Shown in pieces: positions 15,408 to 60,709 of a stretch of 64,000 nucleotides of DNA. Both the position numbers and the translations under genes were made by a program. The stretch lies in assembly GCA_964645535.1 (NCBI GenBank), contig CAZYCQ010000010.1, positions 1 to 64,000 of the forward strand, written 5' to 3'. This stretch comes from an uncultured archaeon. Lineage in GTDB: Archaea > Asgardarchaeota > Heimdallarchaeia > Heimdallarchaeales > Kariarchaeaceae. The notes under the pieces are model-generated. The model was given only the letters and a program-made list of their open reading frames with translations, made no database searches and was not told where the DNA came from. How positions within the stretch are numbered: the first letter of the stretch is position 1; each line of letters starts with the position of its first letter.

Positions 15408-16238
15408 TTACAAATCCTCAATATCGTTGTCCTTCATTCTGTCAATGATAAGATGTTGAAGAAATTCATTTCCGATCAAACGCAAGGTCAACAGATGTTC
15501 CGTTTTCTTTAACCTTCGAATGATGCATCGCAAAACATCTTGATGTTTTGTGAGTGTCGCCAAATGAATCAGTTTTTCAGGGTTAACAATACGTTTGGTA
15601 GCCACAAAACGAACATTTTCATCAATATCGTTCATTGCTACTTCCATAAGGAAATCATCATCTTCTATCCTATCAACGGCAGTATATCTGACCCAATTGT
15701 CGCTATCTTCAACGGCTATTTTCTTTAGAATTGGCTGGGATTTGATGACGCTTGCACATGTTTCCCGTACCGCTCGATCCAATGATTTTTTCCAAATCTG
15801 ATCGAGGATCTCATCATCTTGGATGCGCTTGGTGGCTTCCACTCGTACCTTTGGATCATCATCATTGATGACGATTTCCGCAAGATCTTTTTCTCCTTTG
15901 ATTCCTTGAATAGCTGCTGTTCGAACACGTGGATGGGGGTCTTTAGTGGCTATACGAATAAGGGTTTTTGGATTCTTGATTTTCCATGCTGCAACATACC
16001 TCACTGTCCAACTGGGGTCATTCAGCGCCGCATGACAAAGACATTCTTCATTCTTGATTTTCTTCACGGCTAATTCGCGAACACTTGAATCCGGGTCTTT
16101 CCTTGCAACATATTCCAATTTTTCTTGTTCCTGCAAAACTTCGACAATTTGACGGCGTTGAGAAGGGTCCCTGAGATAGGCCAATTGCCTGAAAAGCTGC
16201 TCATCGCTTACCCCTGAAATCCTCCTCTGAATATTCAT
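15408..16238 (-). CDS. Short HEAT/LRV-like repeat protein
   Basis: About 8 repeats of ~25 aa of the form L..IA..D....VR..A...I. Confidence 0.85.
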   Translation of the reverse strand: MNIQRRISGVSDEQLFRQLAYLRDPSQRRQIVEVLQEQEKLEYVARKDPDSSVRELAVKKIKNEECLCHAALNDPSWTVRYVAAWKIKNPKTLIRIATKDPHPRVRTAAIQGIKGEKDLAEIVINDDDPKVRVEATKRIQDDEILDQIWKKSLDRAVRETCASVIKSQPILKKIAVEDSDNWVRYTAVDRIEDDDFLMEVAMNDIDENVRFVATKRIVNPEKLIHLATLTKHQDVLRCIIRRLKKTEHLLTLRLIGNEFLQHLIIDRMKDNDIEDL

Positions 16239-19752: not shown

Positions 19753-20532
19753 TTAAGAATGAAGGTTGTGGGCAATTTTGAGAACGTTTTCCTTGAATTC
19801 AGTCATGAGTTCGATAATTCCCGAATCGATATGCACCAATTGACCTGTTCTTAATGCGAGATCCAGACGATCAGTATAGTCTTTCCGTAAATTTGAAAGC
19901 AGTTCAAGGATGGGTTCATCAAGTGCATCGGCATCCCCTTCGCCCAATGCTGCAAAAATCAGTCCATCATGGTCTTTTACATAGAGGAATTCCCCTTCCA
20001 ATTCTATTTTTCTTACTTTGTTATGGAGAGCTTCTTCCATGATTGAAAATATTGCCGTAATCGCTCCTGAAAGCAAAACCTCATTCAATGTACTGAAAGC
20101 GCTTTCCGGATCTGTCAGGTAATCTGCGGTATAGTCGAAGGTCATTACGGGTGAACCTGAAGAAGTCAGAATTAAAACTTGATTGATTGTAAAGGGATCT
20201 TGCAAGGTGTGTTGCTCTTGGGGGACTACGATAGAAGGCGTATCTTGGACAGAGCCGGGAGGCAGGGGAAGATCGACTTCGTTTTCATCTTCGGGATAGT
20301 CAACTTTTGGAGGTATATCTCCCTTGATCTTTGCTTTCATTTTTCTTGCATGGTCGATCAACATTTGTGCTATGTTTCTTAATCGTTCCTTATCCTCACC
20401 AAATGCACTTTTAGCCAACTCAACAGCATATGTTGCCGCATCAAGATAACAGTTCTTTGCCTTCTTCAGTTCCCCCATTTGTTCATATTTCCGTCCTTCA
20501 CGGAATACCTCCACAACAAGATCCACATCCAT
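19753..20532 (-). CDS. MIT domain + longin-like domain fusion
   Basis: N-terminal three-helix A.NCYLDA...L......KERLR.....LIDHA; linker VDLPLPP; C-terminal VLILTSSGSPV...LLSGAITAI...IELEG. Confidence 0.7.
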   Translation of the reverse strand: MDVDLVVEVFREGRKYEQMGELKKAKNCYLDAATYAVELAKSAFGEDKERLRNIAQMLIDHARKMKAKIKGDIPPKVDYPEDENEVDLPLPPGSVQDTPSIVVPQEQHTLQDPFTINQVLILTSSGSPVMTFDYTADYLTDPESAFSTLNEVLLSGAITAIFSIMEEALHNKVRKIELEGEFLYVKDHDGLIFAALGEGDADALDEPILELLSNLRKDYTDRLDLALRTGQLVHIDSGIIELMTEFKENVLKIAHNLHS

Positions 20533-22884: not shown

Positions 22885-25800
22885 CTACATTTCCTTTGCA
22901 GGTTCTTCCTCTTCAGGTTGGGGTTCTGGAGGCGAAATTGCATGCTCTGGAGTATCTTTAGGTTTTTCATTGTCCTTTACGTCTCTACCACAATTTGGAC
23001 AGACCGGAACTCTTGAGCTGATGACTTCATCACAGAATGGACATTTTCTAGTAATTCCGATTACCTGCAAGGAGAAACCACCCAAGAATTCAATTCCTTT
23101 TGCGATGGCCAGCGCGCTAAGGACTGAGAACAATGAGATTGCTACATCTTCAACTGTCGAGGACTCAATGACAATATTCCTTGCGGTAATTACTGGTCTA
23201 TGAATTTCAGGGACTTGAGCAAGACTCAGTCCAGGATTATTCGTATCGATTTCTACGGTGGAGGTTATCCCGTCTTTTTCTGCAATTATCAGCAATGTGT
23301 AATTGCCCGCTGGAAGACTGCTGACATCAACACTGAAGGTATATGGTGATAGATGCTTTTCAGCGGCATTCAATGGAACGATATCATTGATTTTTGGATC
23401 ACTCCAAGTAATCGAGACAAATGCATTAACAACTCTTGAGAAGATATCGCTAACTGCAACCTCTACGTCAATAGGGGGTATGCTCTGCTCAATGATATTG
23501 GCTTCCTTTACACTAAGTTGGACAGGGTTTGCAGTAATTACCAAAGAGTTGGGCAGGATGGTCAATGTTCTTTCAATAGTCCTGACAGGATATAATGAGG
23601 AATTCAGGGTCATTTCAATGGTCACATTGATTGTTTCAAGATTATTTGTATTCCTGCCTTGATTGGCAATAATTGCTAGATTGCTAAGCGCAAAAAGTTC
23701 CTGATCCCTAAAGCTTATTGTCGCTTCTCCATCCAGGTCTGTAAATACTGTATTCTTGATTTCTGGAATTTCTTTTACCCTATAGCTTATTGAAGCATCT
23801 TTAATCGGGTTTTGATTCTGATCTAAGGCTGTTACGGAGAACGTGAAGGTTTCAGTTGTTCCTTGGGTAATTTCAAGATTTGTTGGTGAAACCCGCATAT
23901 TGACCCGATTTAAAAGCACACGAACAGGAACAACAAGAATACGGCTTTCAAGATTAAATGCACCTGAATTTGTGATGTTGAGATAGAGGAAGATTTCCTT
24001 GAATGGTGGGATTGGATCCTGACTGTAAAGCTCCGTAAGGTTGACCAACCCATCATCACTCAAATCCTTGACTGAGAAGGTCAATTCGAGTTTTCCAGAA
24101 GTGTCCGTTCTTCCTGATCGAATATACTTCTGGTCGAACTTGGGAATTGAATCGTCAAATGGGAGTCCCAATGATCCAGAGACTTGTAAAGAGCTTAAAA
24201 CATCCCCTTTCTCATCAATGAAGGTTAGATCAGTCGCATAAGTTGAATCAGTTATTGAGAAAGCTTCAATTCCAAATTCTGTTCGAGCTACTCCTAAAGC
24301 TCTTGACTGAACTGTCTGTGACAACAGAACCAAACCTTCTGTTGAAAGTTCAATTTGCACATCATAAACACCTCGTTCAGTAATTTCATAAGTGAATGGA
24401 ATATAGAGGGTATCTTGTGCATTGAACGAATCTAGAAGAACCGTTTCTGTCTTTACATAATCGAATTTAGGAATGGTGACCTTTATATCAAAGGTAAAGG
24501 GTTTAAAGGGATCCCACCAAATCCAAGTTCCATCAGTGACAAACTGACTCAGACCTAGCGTGATTTGTCCTTCATCACCCACTAAAAGGTCTGGTTGTTC
24601 AATTGCAACCATTTCTACAGGAAACATATCTGCAAGAACGGCTTCAATGAAGGTATTTGCCAAGAAGATGTTTTTGTCGACTTGGTTATTGTCCACGATA
24701 AACTTCTTTCCTTGATCATCCCAATAACCGAAATAGAAATGTTCTCGTTCATCAAAAAATCTTTCATGAAGGGCATCAAGACCTAGAAGGGATCGGATCT
24801 TCCAACTTCGAGTGATGGCGGCTCCGGAATTTCCGGGATTGTAAGTTTCCCAATTGACAGCAATCCTGTTCATGGCGAAAATTGCTGCCACGTTGTCTAT
24901 ATTTCTAATGGCTTTTTCATTGAGGGAACTGTCCTTTGAATTTACTTTTGAATAAAGAAGGAAGGAATCTCCATTATCTTCCGAAAAAATTCGAAGGATA
25001 TTCTCCATCAGTTGACTTGCCACTTGGAGAACTTCTTCAGGTCCCTTATTGAGTGCTGTTGAAAATGCTGTTTGCTTGGCATAGGTATTCAGATGTGAAA
25101 CAAGGAAACTATTTCCTATCAAATCTATTTCATCGGATGGTCCTCCTGAAGTGGCGTTGTAGTAGCTTGCAAAGATTCCTGCATGATTTAATGTCTTCCC
25201 GGCAACTGACGTGACATTCATGTTGGTGATCAAGTAAGACACAAGATCTTCCATTTCATTTGCTGGACTAAATTGGAAAATCGGAAATAATTGTGCCCAA
25301 TAGAAGTTTTCTGCAAGCAATGCATAACTCTCCAAAGAATTAATGGGTGAAACGGTCAAGCTGGCATAATCGGATGCGTCAAACACGTCTGTATTTGCAT
25401 CTTCATTGTATCCAGTAATCTCCAGACGCTCTGTATAATTACCTTGCGATTGCTTGAACATAGCCACAATTCTTTCATTTATTTTTACGATAAACTGGGT
25501 GATTTGTGATAGATCAAAGTTCAAAGACGCTGATCCGCTTTTTCCAGCAAAATATTGGATTTCATTAAGCGCAATAAGCATATACACATTATCAGAGAGG
25601 TACGTAACAAAATTGTTCAATCCCGGATTGGACTCATTCGGTCGATAATAGAACAGTCCGTTGGTTGGCTCCAGCATTGTATTGTTTGCCAGTTTAAAAA
25701 TTTCATAGGCCAAGTTGACATATCTGGCCAAAGTCTGTTGCATTTGAGTAATGTCTGGATTGTTGACTTTTGCCAATGTTTCAGAGGTTTTAAGCAATCC

Positions 25801-26568
25801 ATAGACAGAAAGACCAATAACTTTTGCAAAATCTGGATCATTTTGGTCTAATAGACCTAAATTCACTGTTGCAGTATCAAGATCAATGAAATTCGAAGAA
25901 GAAAGATAATCCTGAACTGCAAAGATCAGGTTAATCGGATCGGATTGAAAAGTGCTTGTTTTTTCATTGCTCCTGACAGCCCCTGCCTTAAAATGCTGAA
26001 TGGTAACATTCAAGCTGACGAACTCGCCAGGTCCAAATTCAAAATCCACAAGATCAGTTGCATAAACTACAACAAAATGGTCACCTGTTTTATCGGCAGG
26101 ATAATCGGTTGTCATGGGTAAGTCAAATTCTGAAGTACTTTTGAAGTCTACCCAATCTTCATATCCTGATCCTTGATAGACATCCATGGCGACCTCATAT
26201 TGGTTTTCATCAACAGTGGTTCCAGTAGCTGCATTGACTGTCACACTTACTGGAGATGTTTCATTGATATTGTATTTGAAGAAGATAAAAGAGAATGAAC
26301 TATTCAGTTGAAACTCCCGTGTTCCTCTTCTAACATTGCCTTCCTTCACCATAGGAATTGATATTGCATCGGAAAAATCAGTCCCTGAAGCTAAAGAGAT
26401 GTCTTCTTTTTGAGGATGAGTATTATCAATTCTTTGGGTAGAAGATATTTCACCCAATGGCTGGTCGACAATCCGTATTGTTTTGATCTGACTTTCAACA
26501 GGGCTGAAAGACAACAACATCAAAAGAATGATCGGAATTGCAAAATAGAACCGGTTTCGATCTTGCAT
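22885..26568 (-). CDS. Large single-pass cell-surface protein (helical toroid-like and Ig-like domains, TM, cytoplasmic double zinc ribbon)
   Basis: Signal peptide after MQDRNR; beta-rich repeats (DQNQNPIKDASI); C-terminal TM then CPFC-x10-CPNC; many N-x-S/T. Confidence 0.8.
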   Translation of the reverse strand: MQDRNRFYFAIPIILLMLLSFSPVESQIKTIRIVDQPLGEISSTQRIDNTHPQKEDISLASGTDFSDAISIPMVKEGNVRRGTREFQLNSSFSFIFFKYNINETSPVSVTVNAATGTTVDENQYEVAMDVYQGSGYEDWVDFKSTSEFDLPMTTDYPADKTGDHFVVVYATDLVDFEFGPGEFVSLNVTIQHFKAGAVRSNEKTSTFQSDPINLIFAVQDYLSSSNFIDLDTATVNLGLLDQNDPDFAKVIGLSVYGLLKTSETLAKVNNPDITQMQQTLARYVNLAYEIFKLANNTMLEPTNGLFYYRPNESNPGLNNFVTYLSDNVYMLIALNEIQYFAGKSGSASLNFDLSQITQFIVKINERIVAMFKQSQGNYTERLEITGYNEDANTDVFDASDYASLTVSPINSLESYALLAENFYWAQLFPIFQFSPANEMEDLVSYLITNMNVTSVAGKTLNHAGIFASYYNATSGGPSDEIDLIGNSFLVSHLNTYAKQTAFSTALNKGPEEVLQVASQLMENILRIFSEDNGDSFLLYSKVNSKDSSLNEKAIRNIDNVAAIFAMNRIAVNWETYNPGNSGAAITRSWKIRSLLGLDALHERFFDEREHFYFGYWDDQGKKFIVDNNQVDKNIFLANTFIEAVLADMFPVEMVAIEQPDLLVGDEGQITLGLSQFVTDGTWIWWDPFKPFTFDIKVTIPKFDYVKTETVLLDSFNAQDTLYIPFTYEITERGVYDVQIELSTEGLVLLSQTVQSRALGVARTEFGIEAFSITDSTYATDLTFIDEKGDVLSSLQVSGSLGLPFDDSIPKFDQKYIRSGRTDTSGKLELTFSVKDLSDDGLVNLTELYSQDPIPPFKEIFLYLNITNSGAFNLESRILVVPVRVLLNRVNMRVSPTNLEITQGTTETFTFSVTALDQNQNPIKDASISYRVKEIPEIKNTVFTDLDGEATISFRDQELFALSNLAIIANQGRNTNNLETINVTIEMTLNSSLYPVRTIERTLTILPNSLVITANPVQLSVKEANIIEQSIPPIDVEVAVSDIFSRVVNAFVSITWSDPKINDIVPLNAAEKHLSPYTFSVDVSSLPAGNYTLLIIAEKDGITSTVEIDTNNPGLSLAQVPEIHRPVITARNIVIESSTVEDVAISLFSVLSALAIAKGIEFLGGFSLQVIGITRKCPFCDEVISSRVPVCPNCGRDVKDNEKPKDTPEHAISPPEPQPEEEEPAKEM

Positions 26569-26785
26569 TAAGCAATAGTCCTTTCCCTCCAAAAAAATAT
26601 ATCGAGATGGCAAAGAGTAAATGCGAATTTATTATTGTTTTTACGTAAAGCAATTCTCCATGCTTTTTTTCAATGATATAATTTCCAAGAATTCATTGCG
26701 GTTTTACCAGTATTGGATATTCAATCTTTGAGATATTTCAACAGGAAAAACAATAATTCTTTAACCAGAAGAACAACGAAAACAT

Positions 26786-59560: not shown

Positions 59561-60709
59561 TTAATGTCGATAACTCGATATAATGACTTCCGATTGGACA
59601 ATTGGAATACATTTTCTCAACACCGAATCTGGATCAACACCATTTTCTTGTTGAATTGATCCATCAAAATGAACAATCTGATTTTTAAAATGTTTATGGA
59701 ATTCCCTGATGAAATATCGCATCGAACGTCTTAGAATTTTGGCGGGTCTTTCAGCTTGGACGATTACCTGAACATTCTCAAGATTCTCAAGCAAGATGAC
59801 ACCACCATCGTAATGATAGGCTCTCATTTCGATCTCTTCACGACCAACAAGTTCACCAATAAGCGAATTTACTGAAGCAAAAATGGGGGCAATCAAAAAT
59901 TCCTTTGATCCGGTGCTCTCTGATATTTCTACTGCATACAGCAGTTCTCCTGAATTAGATATCATTTGGAGAAACTTTATTCTTGATGGGGCAAGATAAA
60001 CAAAGTTCGGATATCGAATGTAGAATATTGCAAGTATGAGAAAGACGGGCAAAACCGTTGTGAATGCATTGACATCACCTATGGGGAAGAAATGTTCTGC
60101 AATCTCAATGAGATTGCCGAGATTGAATATTAACAGGGTGATGTTGAAGATGATCAGATATCTCTGAATTTGTTTGTCAGTGGTTAACTTGTACTGTTTG
60201 AAATAAACATACTGTAACAGGATTGAAATTTCCAAACTAAGCAGATCAAATAATAAACTGTCCACGCTGGTATGTTGGGCAAATGGCATGATTTCATCAT
60301 TGAAGATCAGATTCCCTGTACTTACATAGTAGATTGCAAGAAAAATCTGAGCACCTAAAAGTGCAGAGAGGATCGAACCTCGTAAAAGATTGATTCTGTC
60401 ATTGATGAAGTATTCTGCCATGAAATAAAGAATAAGCAATGCCACAAGATGCATGAACCTGACCGGATTAACGATAAGGGAATGTTGGTCGCTTGCATAT
60501 TTGAATAACCCCCATTCTCCTTCAAAGAAAAGTTTCAGAACCTGTAGAACCCCCATAAGGAAGGTTGAGGAAAAAACACCGATAAACCAATCCAATGCAT
60601 TGACTCCAGATTGTCTTCTGGAATAAAAGAAATAAGCCGCAAGAAAACCACTTAAAACAACAAGAATTACTGGTGGAAGTAAATCTTCCATTGCGACGCT
60701 GTTTACCAT
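59561..60709 (-). CDS. 7-TM membrane protein with C-terminal longin-like domain
   Basis: Seven hydrophobic helices, then FLQMISNSGELLY...LIAPIFASVNSLIGE...F.REFHKHF...I..FDG. Confidence 0.7.
   Translation of the reverse strand: MVNSVAMEDLLPPVILVVLSGFLAAYFFYSRRQSGVNALDWFIGVFSSTFLMGVLQVLKLFFEGEWGLFKYASDQHSLIVNPVRFMHLVALLILYFMAEYFINDRINLLRGSILSALLGAQIFLAIYYVSTGNLIFNDEIMPFAQHTSVDSLLFDLLSLEISILLQYVYFKQYKLTTDKQIQRYLIIFNITLLIFNLGNLIEIAEHFFPIGDVNAFTTVLPVFLILAIFYIRYPNFVYLAPSRIKFLQMISNSGELLYAVEISESTGSKEFLIAPIFASVNSLIGELVGREEIEMRAYHYDGGVILLENLENVQVIVQAERPAKILRRSMRYFIREFHKHFKNQIVHFDGSIQQENGVDPDSVLRKCIPIVQSEVIISSYRH

Follow-up and report, generated by a model that had tools for sequence, protein, structure and literature searches.

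The 259-residue protein P0001 is encoded, from an ATG start, by an intact open reading frame on the minus strand (19753-20532) of the window, that is, of the whole stretch of 64,000 nucleotides of Asgard archaeal DNA analysed here, and its translation joins an MIT domain homologous to that of Vps4, an acidic linker with a conserved MIM2-like proline motif, and a longin domain. This MIT-longin architecture is real and conserved and has apparently not been described before. As for its role, the reading that we prefer, and to which we assign about an even chance of being right, is that of a non-catalytic protein of the cytoplasm, an accessory adaptor to the Asgard ESCRT-III/Vps4 machinery, that arose by domain shuffling and whose binding steps we infer.

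Domain layout, MIT homology and distribution

In the AlphaFold2 model (input alignment of 21 sequences), three helices at residues 3-18, 22-42, and 46-70 with pLDDT values of 85-96 make up the MIT domain (residues 3-70; 20323-20526, minus strand). They are followed by a region of low confidence (residues 73-109) within a disordered linker (residues 71-113; 20194-20322, minus strand; pLDDT 40-52) that contains 10 acidic residues versus a single basic one. The linker includes the sequence VDLPLPP (residues 86-92) with the MIM2-like core motif LPLPP (residues 88-92; 20257-20271, minus strand), and the remainder of the protein (residues 115-258; 19759-20190, minus strand) forms a five-stranded longin-type domain. 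Neither a P-loop nor an AAA domain was found in P0001 by Pfam, which sets it apart from Vps4/CdvC proteins; the Vps4 of this genome is encoded by a separate gene on contig C52. An N-terminal MIT-like three-helix bundle, an acidic linker with VDLPLPP and the lack of an ATPase domain had all been proposed in an earlier note on this DNA, and all three are borne out.

Searched with P0001 itself, Pfam gave only sub-threshold matches to Fuz_longin_1 (E 0.049) and TPR_2 (E 0.24) and none to MIT. Together with VIA comparisons, in which TPR chains also score Z values of about 10-11, this is what can be said for reading the N-terminal domain as a generic bundle of TPR-like helices and the prolines of the linker as a product of chance. 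Such an explanation is highly improbable in view of the profile comparisons, which rule out a TPR identity of the domain. A profile of residues 1-72 searched against the own genome matched only P0001 and the Vps4 MIT domain (E 2e-6), whereas TPR proteins gave E values of at least 0.25, and hhalign against a profile of nine Asgard Vps4 MIT domains yielded 97.7 % with an E value of 2.4e-12. Pfam MIT was furthermore matched in 3 of 21 family members (best E 1.7e-6, below the gathering cut-off), and the family MIT profile repeatedly matched the MIT domains of VPS4A/B, calpain-7, and chitin synthases among PDB sequences. Structurally, the P0001 MIT model resembles the MIT domains of calpain-7, katanin, MITD1, VPS4, and CdvC with VIA Z scores of 11.0-11.6 (calpain-7: Z 11.6, rmsd 1.2 over 69 residues; CdvC: Z 11.0, rmsd 1.4), which are not decisive on their own for helical bundles. 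Judged by sequence and profile homology, residues 3-70 of P0001 are thus an MIT domain homologous to that of Vps4.

Full-length homologues comprise three close (about 60-79 % identity) and about 17 distant proteins (24-38 %). A relative from a genome of the same GTDB family clusters at 90 % with a protein deposited as Kariarchaeaceae, from which family the window most likely derives; the sample seems to be a hot-spring metagenome. Among the 400 Asgard genomes searched, 12 belong to Kariarchaeaceae, and 10 of these have the MIT-longin form, the two without it being 80 % and 84 % complete; one genome of the same genus as that of P0001 (G054) encodes two paralogues on contigs C102 and C444 (loci L013 and L070), both of which bear the motif. 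It is also found in four genomes of two further families, one of which is Baldrarchaeia by its cluster members, but in none of the 71 remaining Heimdallarchaeia genomes that were searched. The ESM Atlas returned only sub-threshold, unnamed Asgard clusters. Trees of the MIT and the longin domain both set the Baldrarchaeia apart from the Kariarchaeaceae forms, and an AU test on the longin domain did not reject a single clade (p 0.17); the trees would fit an MIT-longin form that perhaps evolved twice, in Kariarchaeaceae and in Baldrarchaeia. Its confinement to one Heimdallarchaeia family and Baldrarchaeia suggests a lineage-specific experiment and no clear ancestor of a eukaryotic protein.

In three genomes of the family to which P0001 belongs, the same MIT subfamily is also joined to a P-loop ATPase of HerA/TrwB-like type in proteins of about 490-515 amino acids (G047, L069:274-1749, minus strand; G055, L071:1498-3042, plus strand; G049, L072:265-1737, minus strand, with LP-rich motifs after the MIT domain). 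In Lokiarchaeia/Promethearchaeota, the proteins P0052 (L064:1003-1767, minus strand) and P0054 (L066:1021-1755, minus strand) consist of an MIT domain, a long acidic linker, and a C-terminal zinc ribbon. The linker of P0052 carries the near-canonical MIM2 sequence ELPDVP and thus represents a second design in which an MIT domain comes with its own MIM2.

The proline motif and the MIM1-binding face

Conservation of the proline motif was assessed in the linkers of relatives, which range from 14 to 85 residues in length and are otherwise unalignable. After dereplication at 90 %, phi-P-x-phi-P is found in 20 of 29 relatives, as compared to a mean of 3.2 and a maximum of 10 in 5000 shuffles, and at 50 % dereplication in 15 of 20 versus 2.2 in shuffles; these counts cannot be read as p-values for function since kin share traits. 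The chance explanation mentioned above fares no better here than it does for the MIT domain. Within the motif columns, L/F occupies 24 of 26 sequences and the two prolines 23 and 20 of 26, respectively. It is the motif rather than the linker that is kept, since it persists despite an upstream insertion of 12-20 residues in the P0001 clade. Nine of the 29 relatives, among them most Baldrarchaeia copies, lack the motif or have it in degenerate form. Inheritance from a Vps4 linker can be ruled out, as none of nine Vps4 linkers carries phi-P-x-phi-P.

The resemblance of VDLPLPP to MIM2 claimed in the earlier note is borne out. LPLPP has the MIM2 core phi-P-x-phi-P, lies in a disordered segment, is conserved and fits the archaeal CdvB MIM2, which ends in LPxPP (PMC5141497); variants such as LPAVP, LPRVP, and LPTIP come near eukaryotic MIM2. 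The strict core of Frohn et al., which requires a charged x (PMC8970359), is absent together with the CHMP6-type LP(E/D)VP and a downstream xLP, as x is leucine in P0001 and variable in its relatives.

The position of the motif bears on another of the proposals of the earlier note, namely an autoinhibited adaptor. In a fuller form, the motif would close the own MIT domain of a protein bridging ESCRT-III and a small-GTPase module until release, with the longin domain acting, as homo- or heterodimer, as platform or GEF. Support for a closed state may be seen in the P0016 model, where the motif block reaches a pLDDT of 77, as compared to about 42 in P0001, where it is unplaced. However, of the 20 relatives with a motif, 13 have it begin only 3-6 residues past helix 3 (in the P0016 model, helix 3 ends at residue 82 and the motif starts at residue 85), while peptides that bind as canonical MIM2 begin near L6/F39 (PMC11218997). 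In an up-down-up topology, these residues would lie at the bundle end opposite the C-terminus of helix 3, which a spacer of 3-6 residues cannot reach, so that canonical docking in cis is improbable for most members. Canonical MIM2 autoinhibition in cis is accordingly unlikely in most of the family and the proposal a poor fit to its geometry. Other modes remain, either in trans, with the MIT domain of Vps4 or of another copy, or by a reverse fold-back as in the MIM(N) of Atg13.

The opposite face of the argument concerns ESCRT-III itself. By reading of open reading frames, genes for Vps23, Vps28, Vps22, a Vps25-like protein, and Vps4 lie on contig C52 (G000:C52:1664-5647, with Vps4 at G000:C52:2355-3527), and two ESCRT-III genes on another contig, C42 (G000:C42:5500-6802), which encode ESCRT-IIIA (G000:C42:6185-6802) and ESCRT-IIIB (G000:C42:5500-6174). 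Both ESCRT-III tails contain an LP motif (LPTPV and LPEAG) and a MIM1-like helix with glutamate in place of the eukaryotic arginine. Across Heimdallarchaeia, 28 of 30 and 22 of 25 ESCRT-III tails, many of them close kin, have LxxE[LI]xxL[KR] at their end, whereas the eukaryotic MIM1 consensus has arginine where these tails have glutamate (PMC5141497).

On the side of the MIT domain, whose positions are numbered here via an alignment of P0001 with VPS4A, the face that would receive such a helix is well kept. I59 (L64 in VPS4A) is I/V/L in all 28 family MIT domains, L30 is kept in 27 of 28, and R63 (E68 in VPS4A) is a lysine or arginine in all 28 and likewise in 9 of 9 Asgard Vps4 proteins. F10, the V13-equivalent, is hydrophobic throughout; roles of V13 and L64 in MIT binding are documented (PMC11218997). 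From these alignments, P0001 and Vps4 seem to have a charge swap in common, by which a basic MIT residue complements the glutamate of the ESCRT-III tails. Complex prediction with the P0001 MIT domain and the ESCRT-IIIA tail of its own genome gave a score of 0.51 versus 0.00 for the best control, with runs that share at least 62 % of contacts and a partner pLDDT of at least 53. In the benchmark, the pass mark was reached by 58 out of 80 solved pairs and by 2 out of 110 mismatched ones, but the passes at or below 0.60 consisted of just 7 solved pairs next to both of the mismatched ones. Since 0.51 falls in this error-prone range and similar complexes have been solved (2jq9, 2v6x), the pass is weak and may stem from likeness to solved pairs. 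The link to ESCRT-III put forward in the earlier note thus gains indirect support from the retained MIM1 face and, weakly, from this prediction.

The same domain can also be read as a repurposed MIT without a role in ESCRT-III, which would form, together with LPxxP, a self-contained unit (a reverse fold-back or a clasp of dimers or oligomers) in longin signalling, where it would add a further input or oligomerisation module to the promiscuous Asgard longin. This is possible, if doubtful. Residues that are invariant in Asgard Vps4 have changed in the family (R66 to H/Y/W/Q, Y63 to L/I, A9 to I/V/L, and F39/L to A/S), and the aromatic residue often found at R66 would lie near the landing site of a folded-back motif. 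Occurrence of the same MIT subfamily on HerA/TrwB-like ATPases may likewise indicate repurposing, and the patchy distribution, the lack of ESCRT genes nearby (see below), and the extensive lineage-specific shuffling of such domains (Liu et al., preprint 10.1101/2020.10.19.343400), normal in Asgard over a narrow range, point in the same direction. Against it stand the MIM1 face, which is conserved over 25 % identity along with its basic residue complementing the Asgard MIM1, and the complex prediction with the ESCRT-IIIA tail, weak as that pass is.

The longin domain and its genomic setting

The C-terminal longin-like domain of the earlier note was confirmed by Foldseek and VIA, with matches to TRAPP subunits, AP-2 sigma, adaptor sigma/mu subunits, VAMP7, and Mon1-Ccz1. 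VIA aligned 126 residues with the TRAPP chain 3cue_A (Z 13.1, rmsd 2.7), and a second, independent model gave a Z of 13.0 to TRAPP longins. The topology (beta-beta-alpha-beta-beta-beta-alpha-alpha, with a five-stranded sheet and no N-terminal helix) is that of a longin. Ten of 25 members matched Pfam Fuz_longin_1, the best with an E value of 2.3e-5 (below the cut-off), and the longin profile found only noise among PDB sequences. The most conserved parts of the domain are a G-x-P hairpin (G126, P128) and a small-residue helix alpha-1 (SGAITA, residues 155-160).

These features are also what can be adduced for the GTPase half of the autoinhibited bridge introduced above. The top fold matches are longins of GEFs (TRAPP, Mon1-Ccz1), and in Mon1-Ccz1 the equivalents of hairpin and alpha-1 build the dimer and the GTPase platform, with alpha-1 serving as the GTPase interface and G232, G250, and T254 mutants losing activity (PMC5216073). 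Besides, the genome encodes 31 small GTPases, and the closest match of the P0001 longin outside the family is a longin-Rab-like fusion, P0023 (L111:919-2154, plus strand), whose longin groups with it in trees; this may serve as a hint only of a GTPase link, as P0023 sits on a long branch. However, these longin features are generic: the genome encodes about 49 proteins with the same longin type, and 17 of them have at least three TM segments. Nor does the domain carry the signature of GAP longins, a contiguous GP motif before beta-2 and an arginine finger (PMC12290439): it has G-x-P instead of GP and no column with arginine in more than 7 of 26 sequences, and a GAP-type longin as in FLCN/NPRL2/SMCR8 was rejected on this basis. 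The Mon1-type lysine at position 127 is also absent from the P0001 longin. One of the 17 membrane proteins is encoded in the window itself (59561-60709, minus strand); it has multiple TM segments and, at its C-terminus, a longin of this Asgard type.

Genomic neighbourhoods contribute little to either reading. P0001 and its close relatives are flanked by genes for transporters and cofactor metabolism (MFS, EamA, CofH), a setting that is kept only among them, while other members are found in unrelated surroundings; no ESCRT genes lie near MIT-longin genes in any locus read. Of about 11 independent contexts, 2 have a gene for a small GTPase no farther than about 5 kb away (9 % expected per locus). 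With neighbours that differ between members and GTPases at chance level, operon evidence for a function can be dismissed. The lack of GTPase neighbours itself weighs little, since the genes of Asgard GTPases do not, as a rule, share an operon with those of their longins (Tran et al., PMC10933270). With about 49 similar longins, no GAP signature, and unrelated neighbourhoods, the small-GTPase link of the earlier note is left unsupported, and given also the spacer that falls short of the L6/F39 site, the autoinhibited bridge as a whole appears unlikely.

Several features of these loci are recorded for completeness. The window also encodes a 1242-residue protein with a signal-peptide-like start, an Ig-like domain, and a C-terminal zinc ribbon (22885-26613, minus strand), whose gene has the same position in L003 and is absent from the syntenic L004, and a HEAT-repeat protein (15408-16238, minus strand). 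In L112:7273-11995, the homologue P0018 is flanked on one side by a Bax-inhibitor-1-family gene and on the other by the gene for a 1077-residue protein with a C-terminal PCI/UFL1-like winged helix, with a Ras-like GTPase 3 kb upstream. The loci L044, L047, and L113 (P0007, a P0024-like protein, and P0020) share a neighbourhood of a DEAD-box helicase and a chemotaxis cluster, which is probably plain synteny.

Proposed role and comparison with known systems

Taken as an accessory adaptor, P0001 would dock with its MIT domain on ESCRT-III filaments, the groove between helices 2 and 3 taking up the acidic C-terminal MIM1-like helix. LPxxP would mimic the MIM2 of ESCRT-III tails and bind a groove between helices 1 and 3, most likely in trans, with the MIT domain of Vps4 (as in yeast Vfa1) or of another P0001 copy as target and a reverse fold-back as the less likely option. 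The longin domain may pair with another longin via alpha-1 and an edge strand, thus tethering the protein to a membrane-bound or soluble longin partner. The net effect would be that Vps4 is placed or tuned on ESCRT-III at sites marked by the longin partner, conceivably with the involvement of a GTPase. Homology to the Vps4 MIT, the kept MIM1 face, conservation of the motif, and the LP motifs of ESCRT-III tails argue for this adaptor, whereas the absence of an ESCRT neighbourhood, the diverged MIT residues, the relatives with absent or degenerate motif, the failure of the strict MIM2 core, a motif left unplaced by AlphaFold2, and the existence of human MIT domains that do not bind count against it. 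A more elaborate version, in which a dedicated adaptor binds ESCRT-III through its MIT domain, recruits Vps4 through the built-in MIM2, takes part in a GTPase platform through its longin domain, and perhaps evolved twice, seems rather improbable.

Asgard archaea possess ESCRT, many longins, and small GTPases, yet almost no wiring among these systems is known. In the literature on Asgard, MIT, and longin, neither an MIT-longin protein nor an in-cis MIM2-like motif is described, an annotation in the asCOG tables being possible, and no Vta1/Vfa1-like Vps4 cofactors of Asgard were met in the literature searched. If P0001 binds, archaeal ESCRT-III would have an MIT cofactor that is free of an ATPase, and if the GTPase-platform version were true, the protein would connect GTPase signalling directly to ESCRT-III remodelling in a prokaryote. 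As the candidate partners (two ESCRT-III tails and the Vps4 MIT) are encoded in the same genome, the question is testable with few peptides.

Among known proteins, the MIT domains of Vps4/CdvC (Asgard Vps4; human VPS4A, 2jq9; Sulfolobus CdvC, 2w2u) are close counterparts, homologous three-helix bundles that have the hydrophobic L64- and V13-equivalents and, in Asgard, the basic residue at the E68 position in common with P0001. Unlike Vps4, P0001 is devoid of an AAA ATPase, is altered at the R66, Y63, A9, and F39/L equivalents, and has a MIM2-like motif built in. The longin platforms of GEFs and GAPs (Mon1-Ccz1, Fuzzy-Inturned, TRAPP Bet5/Trs23, FLCN/NPRL2/SMCR8) are alike in fold, and the G-x-P hairpin is as in the first longin of Fuz/Mon1, but P0001, with its single longin, lacks a tri-longin or DENN part as well as the GP motif and the arginine finger.

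Human VPS9D1 combines a predicted MIT domain with a Vps9 GEF domain. It resembles P0001 in that an MIT domain is joined to a small-GTPase-regulator module, the second domains being unrelated. While most human MIT domains bind ESCRT-III tails, those of NRBF2, VPS9D1, and ULK1 do not (PMC9477494), and the VPS9D1 case makes architecture alone an unsafe basis for a link to ESCRT.

In the way it would work, P0001 is analogous to eukaryotic Vta1/LIP5 (MIT-linker-VSL), Vfa1 (helix and MIM2), and IST1, ATPase-free MIT or MIM2 modules that join Vps4 and ESCRT-III (PMC5141497, PMC11218997). It differs from them in its single MIT domain and in having a longin domain instead of a VSL, and homology is seen only in the MIT fold. 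Finally, Asgard proteins that combine Vps28-C, adaptin-appendage, and longin domains likewise unite an ESCRT-derived domain with a longin in a patchy distribution, and a connection between ESCRT and small GTPases has been proposed for the Vps28-C/longin fusions (Makarova et al. 2024, PMC10936438), where we met no mention of MIT-longin. Vps28-C fusions draw on a module of ESCRT-I, whereas P0001 would employ an ESCRT-III-binding MIT domain together with its MIM2-like motif.
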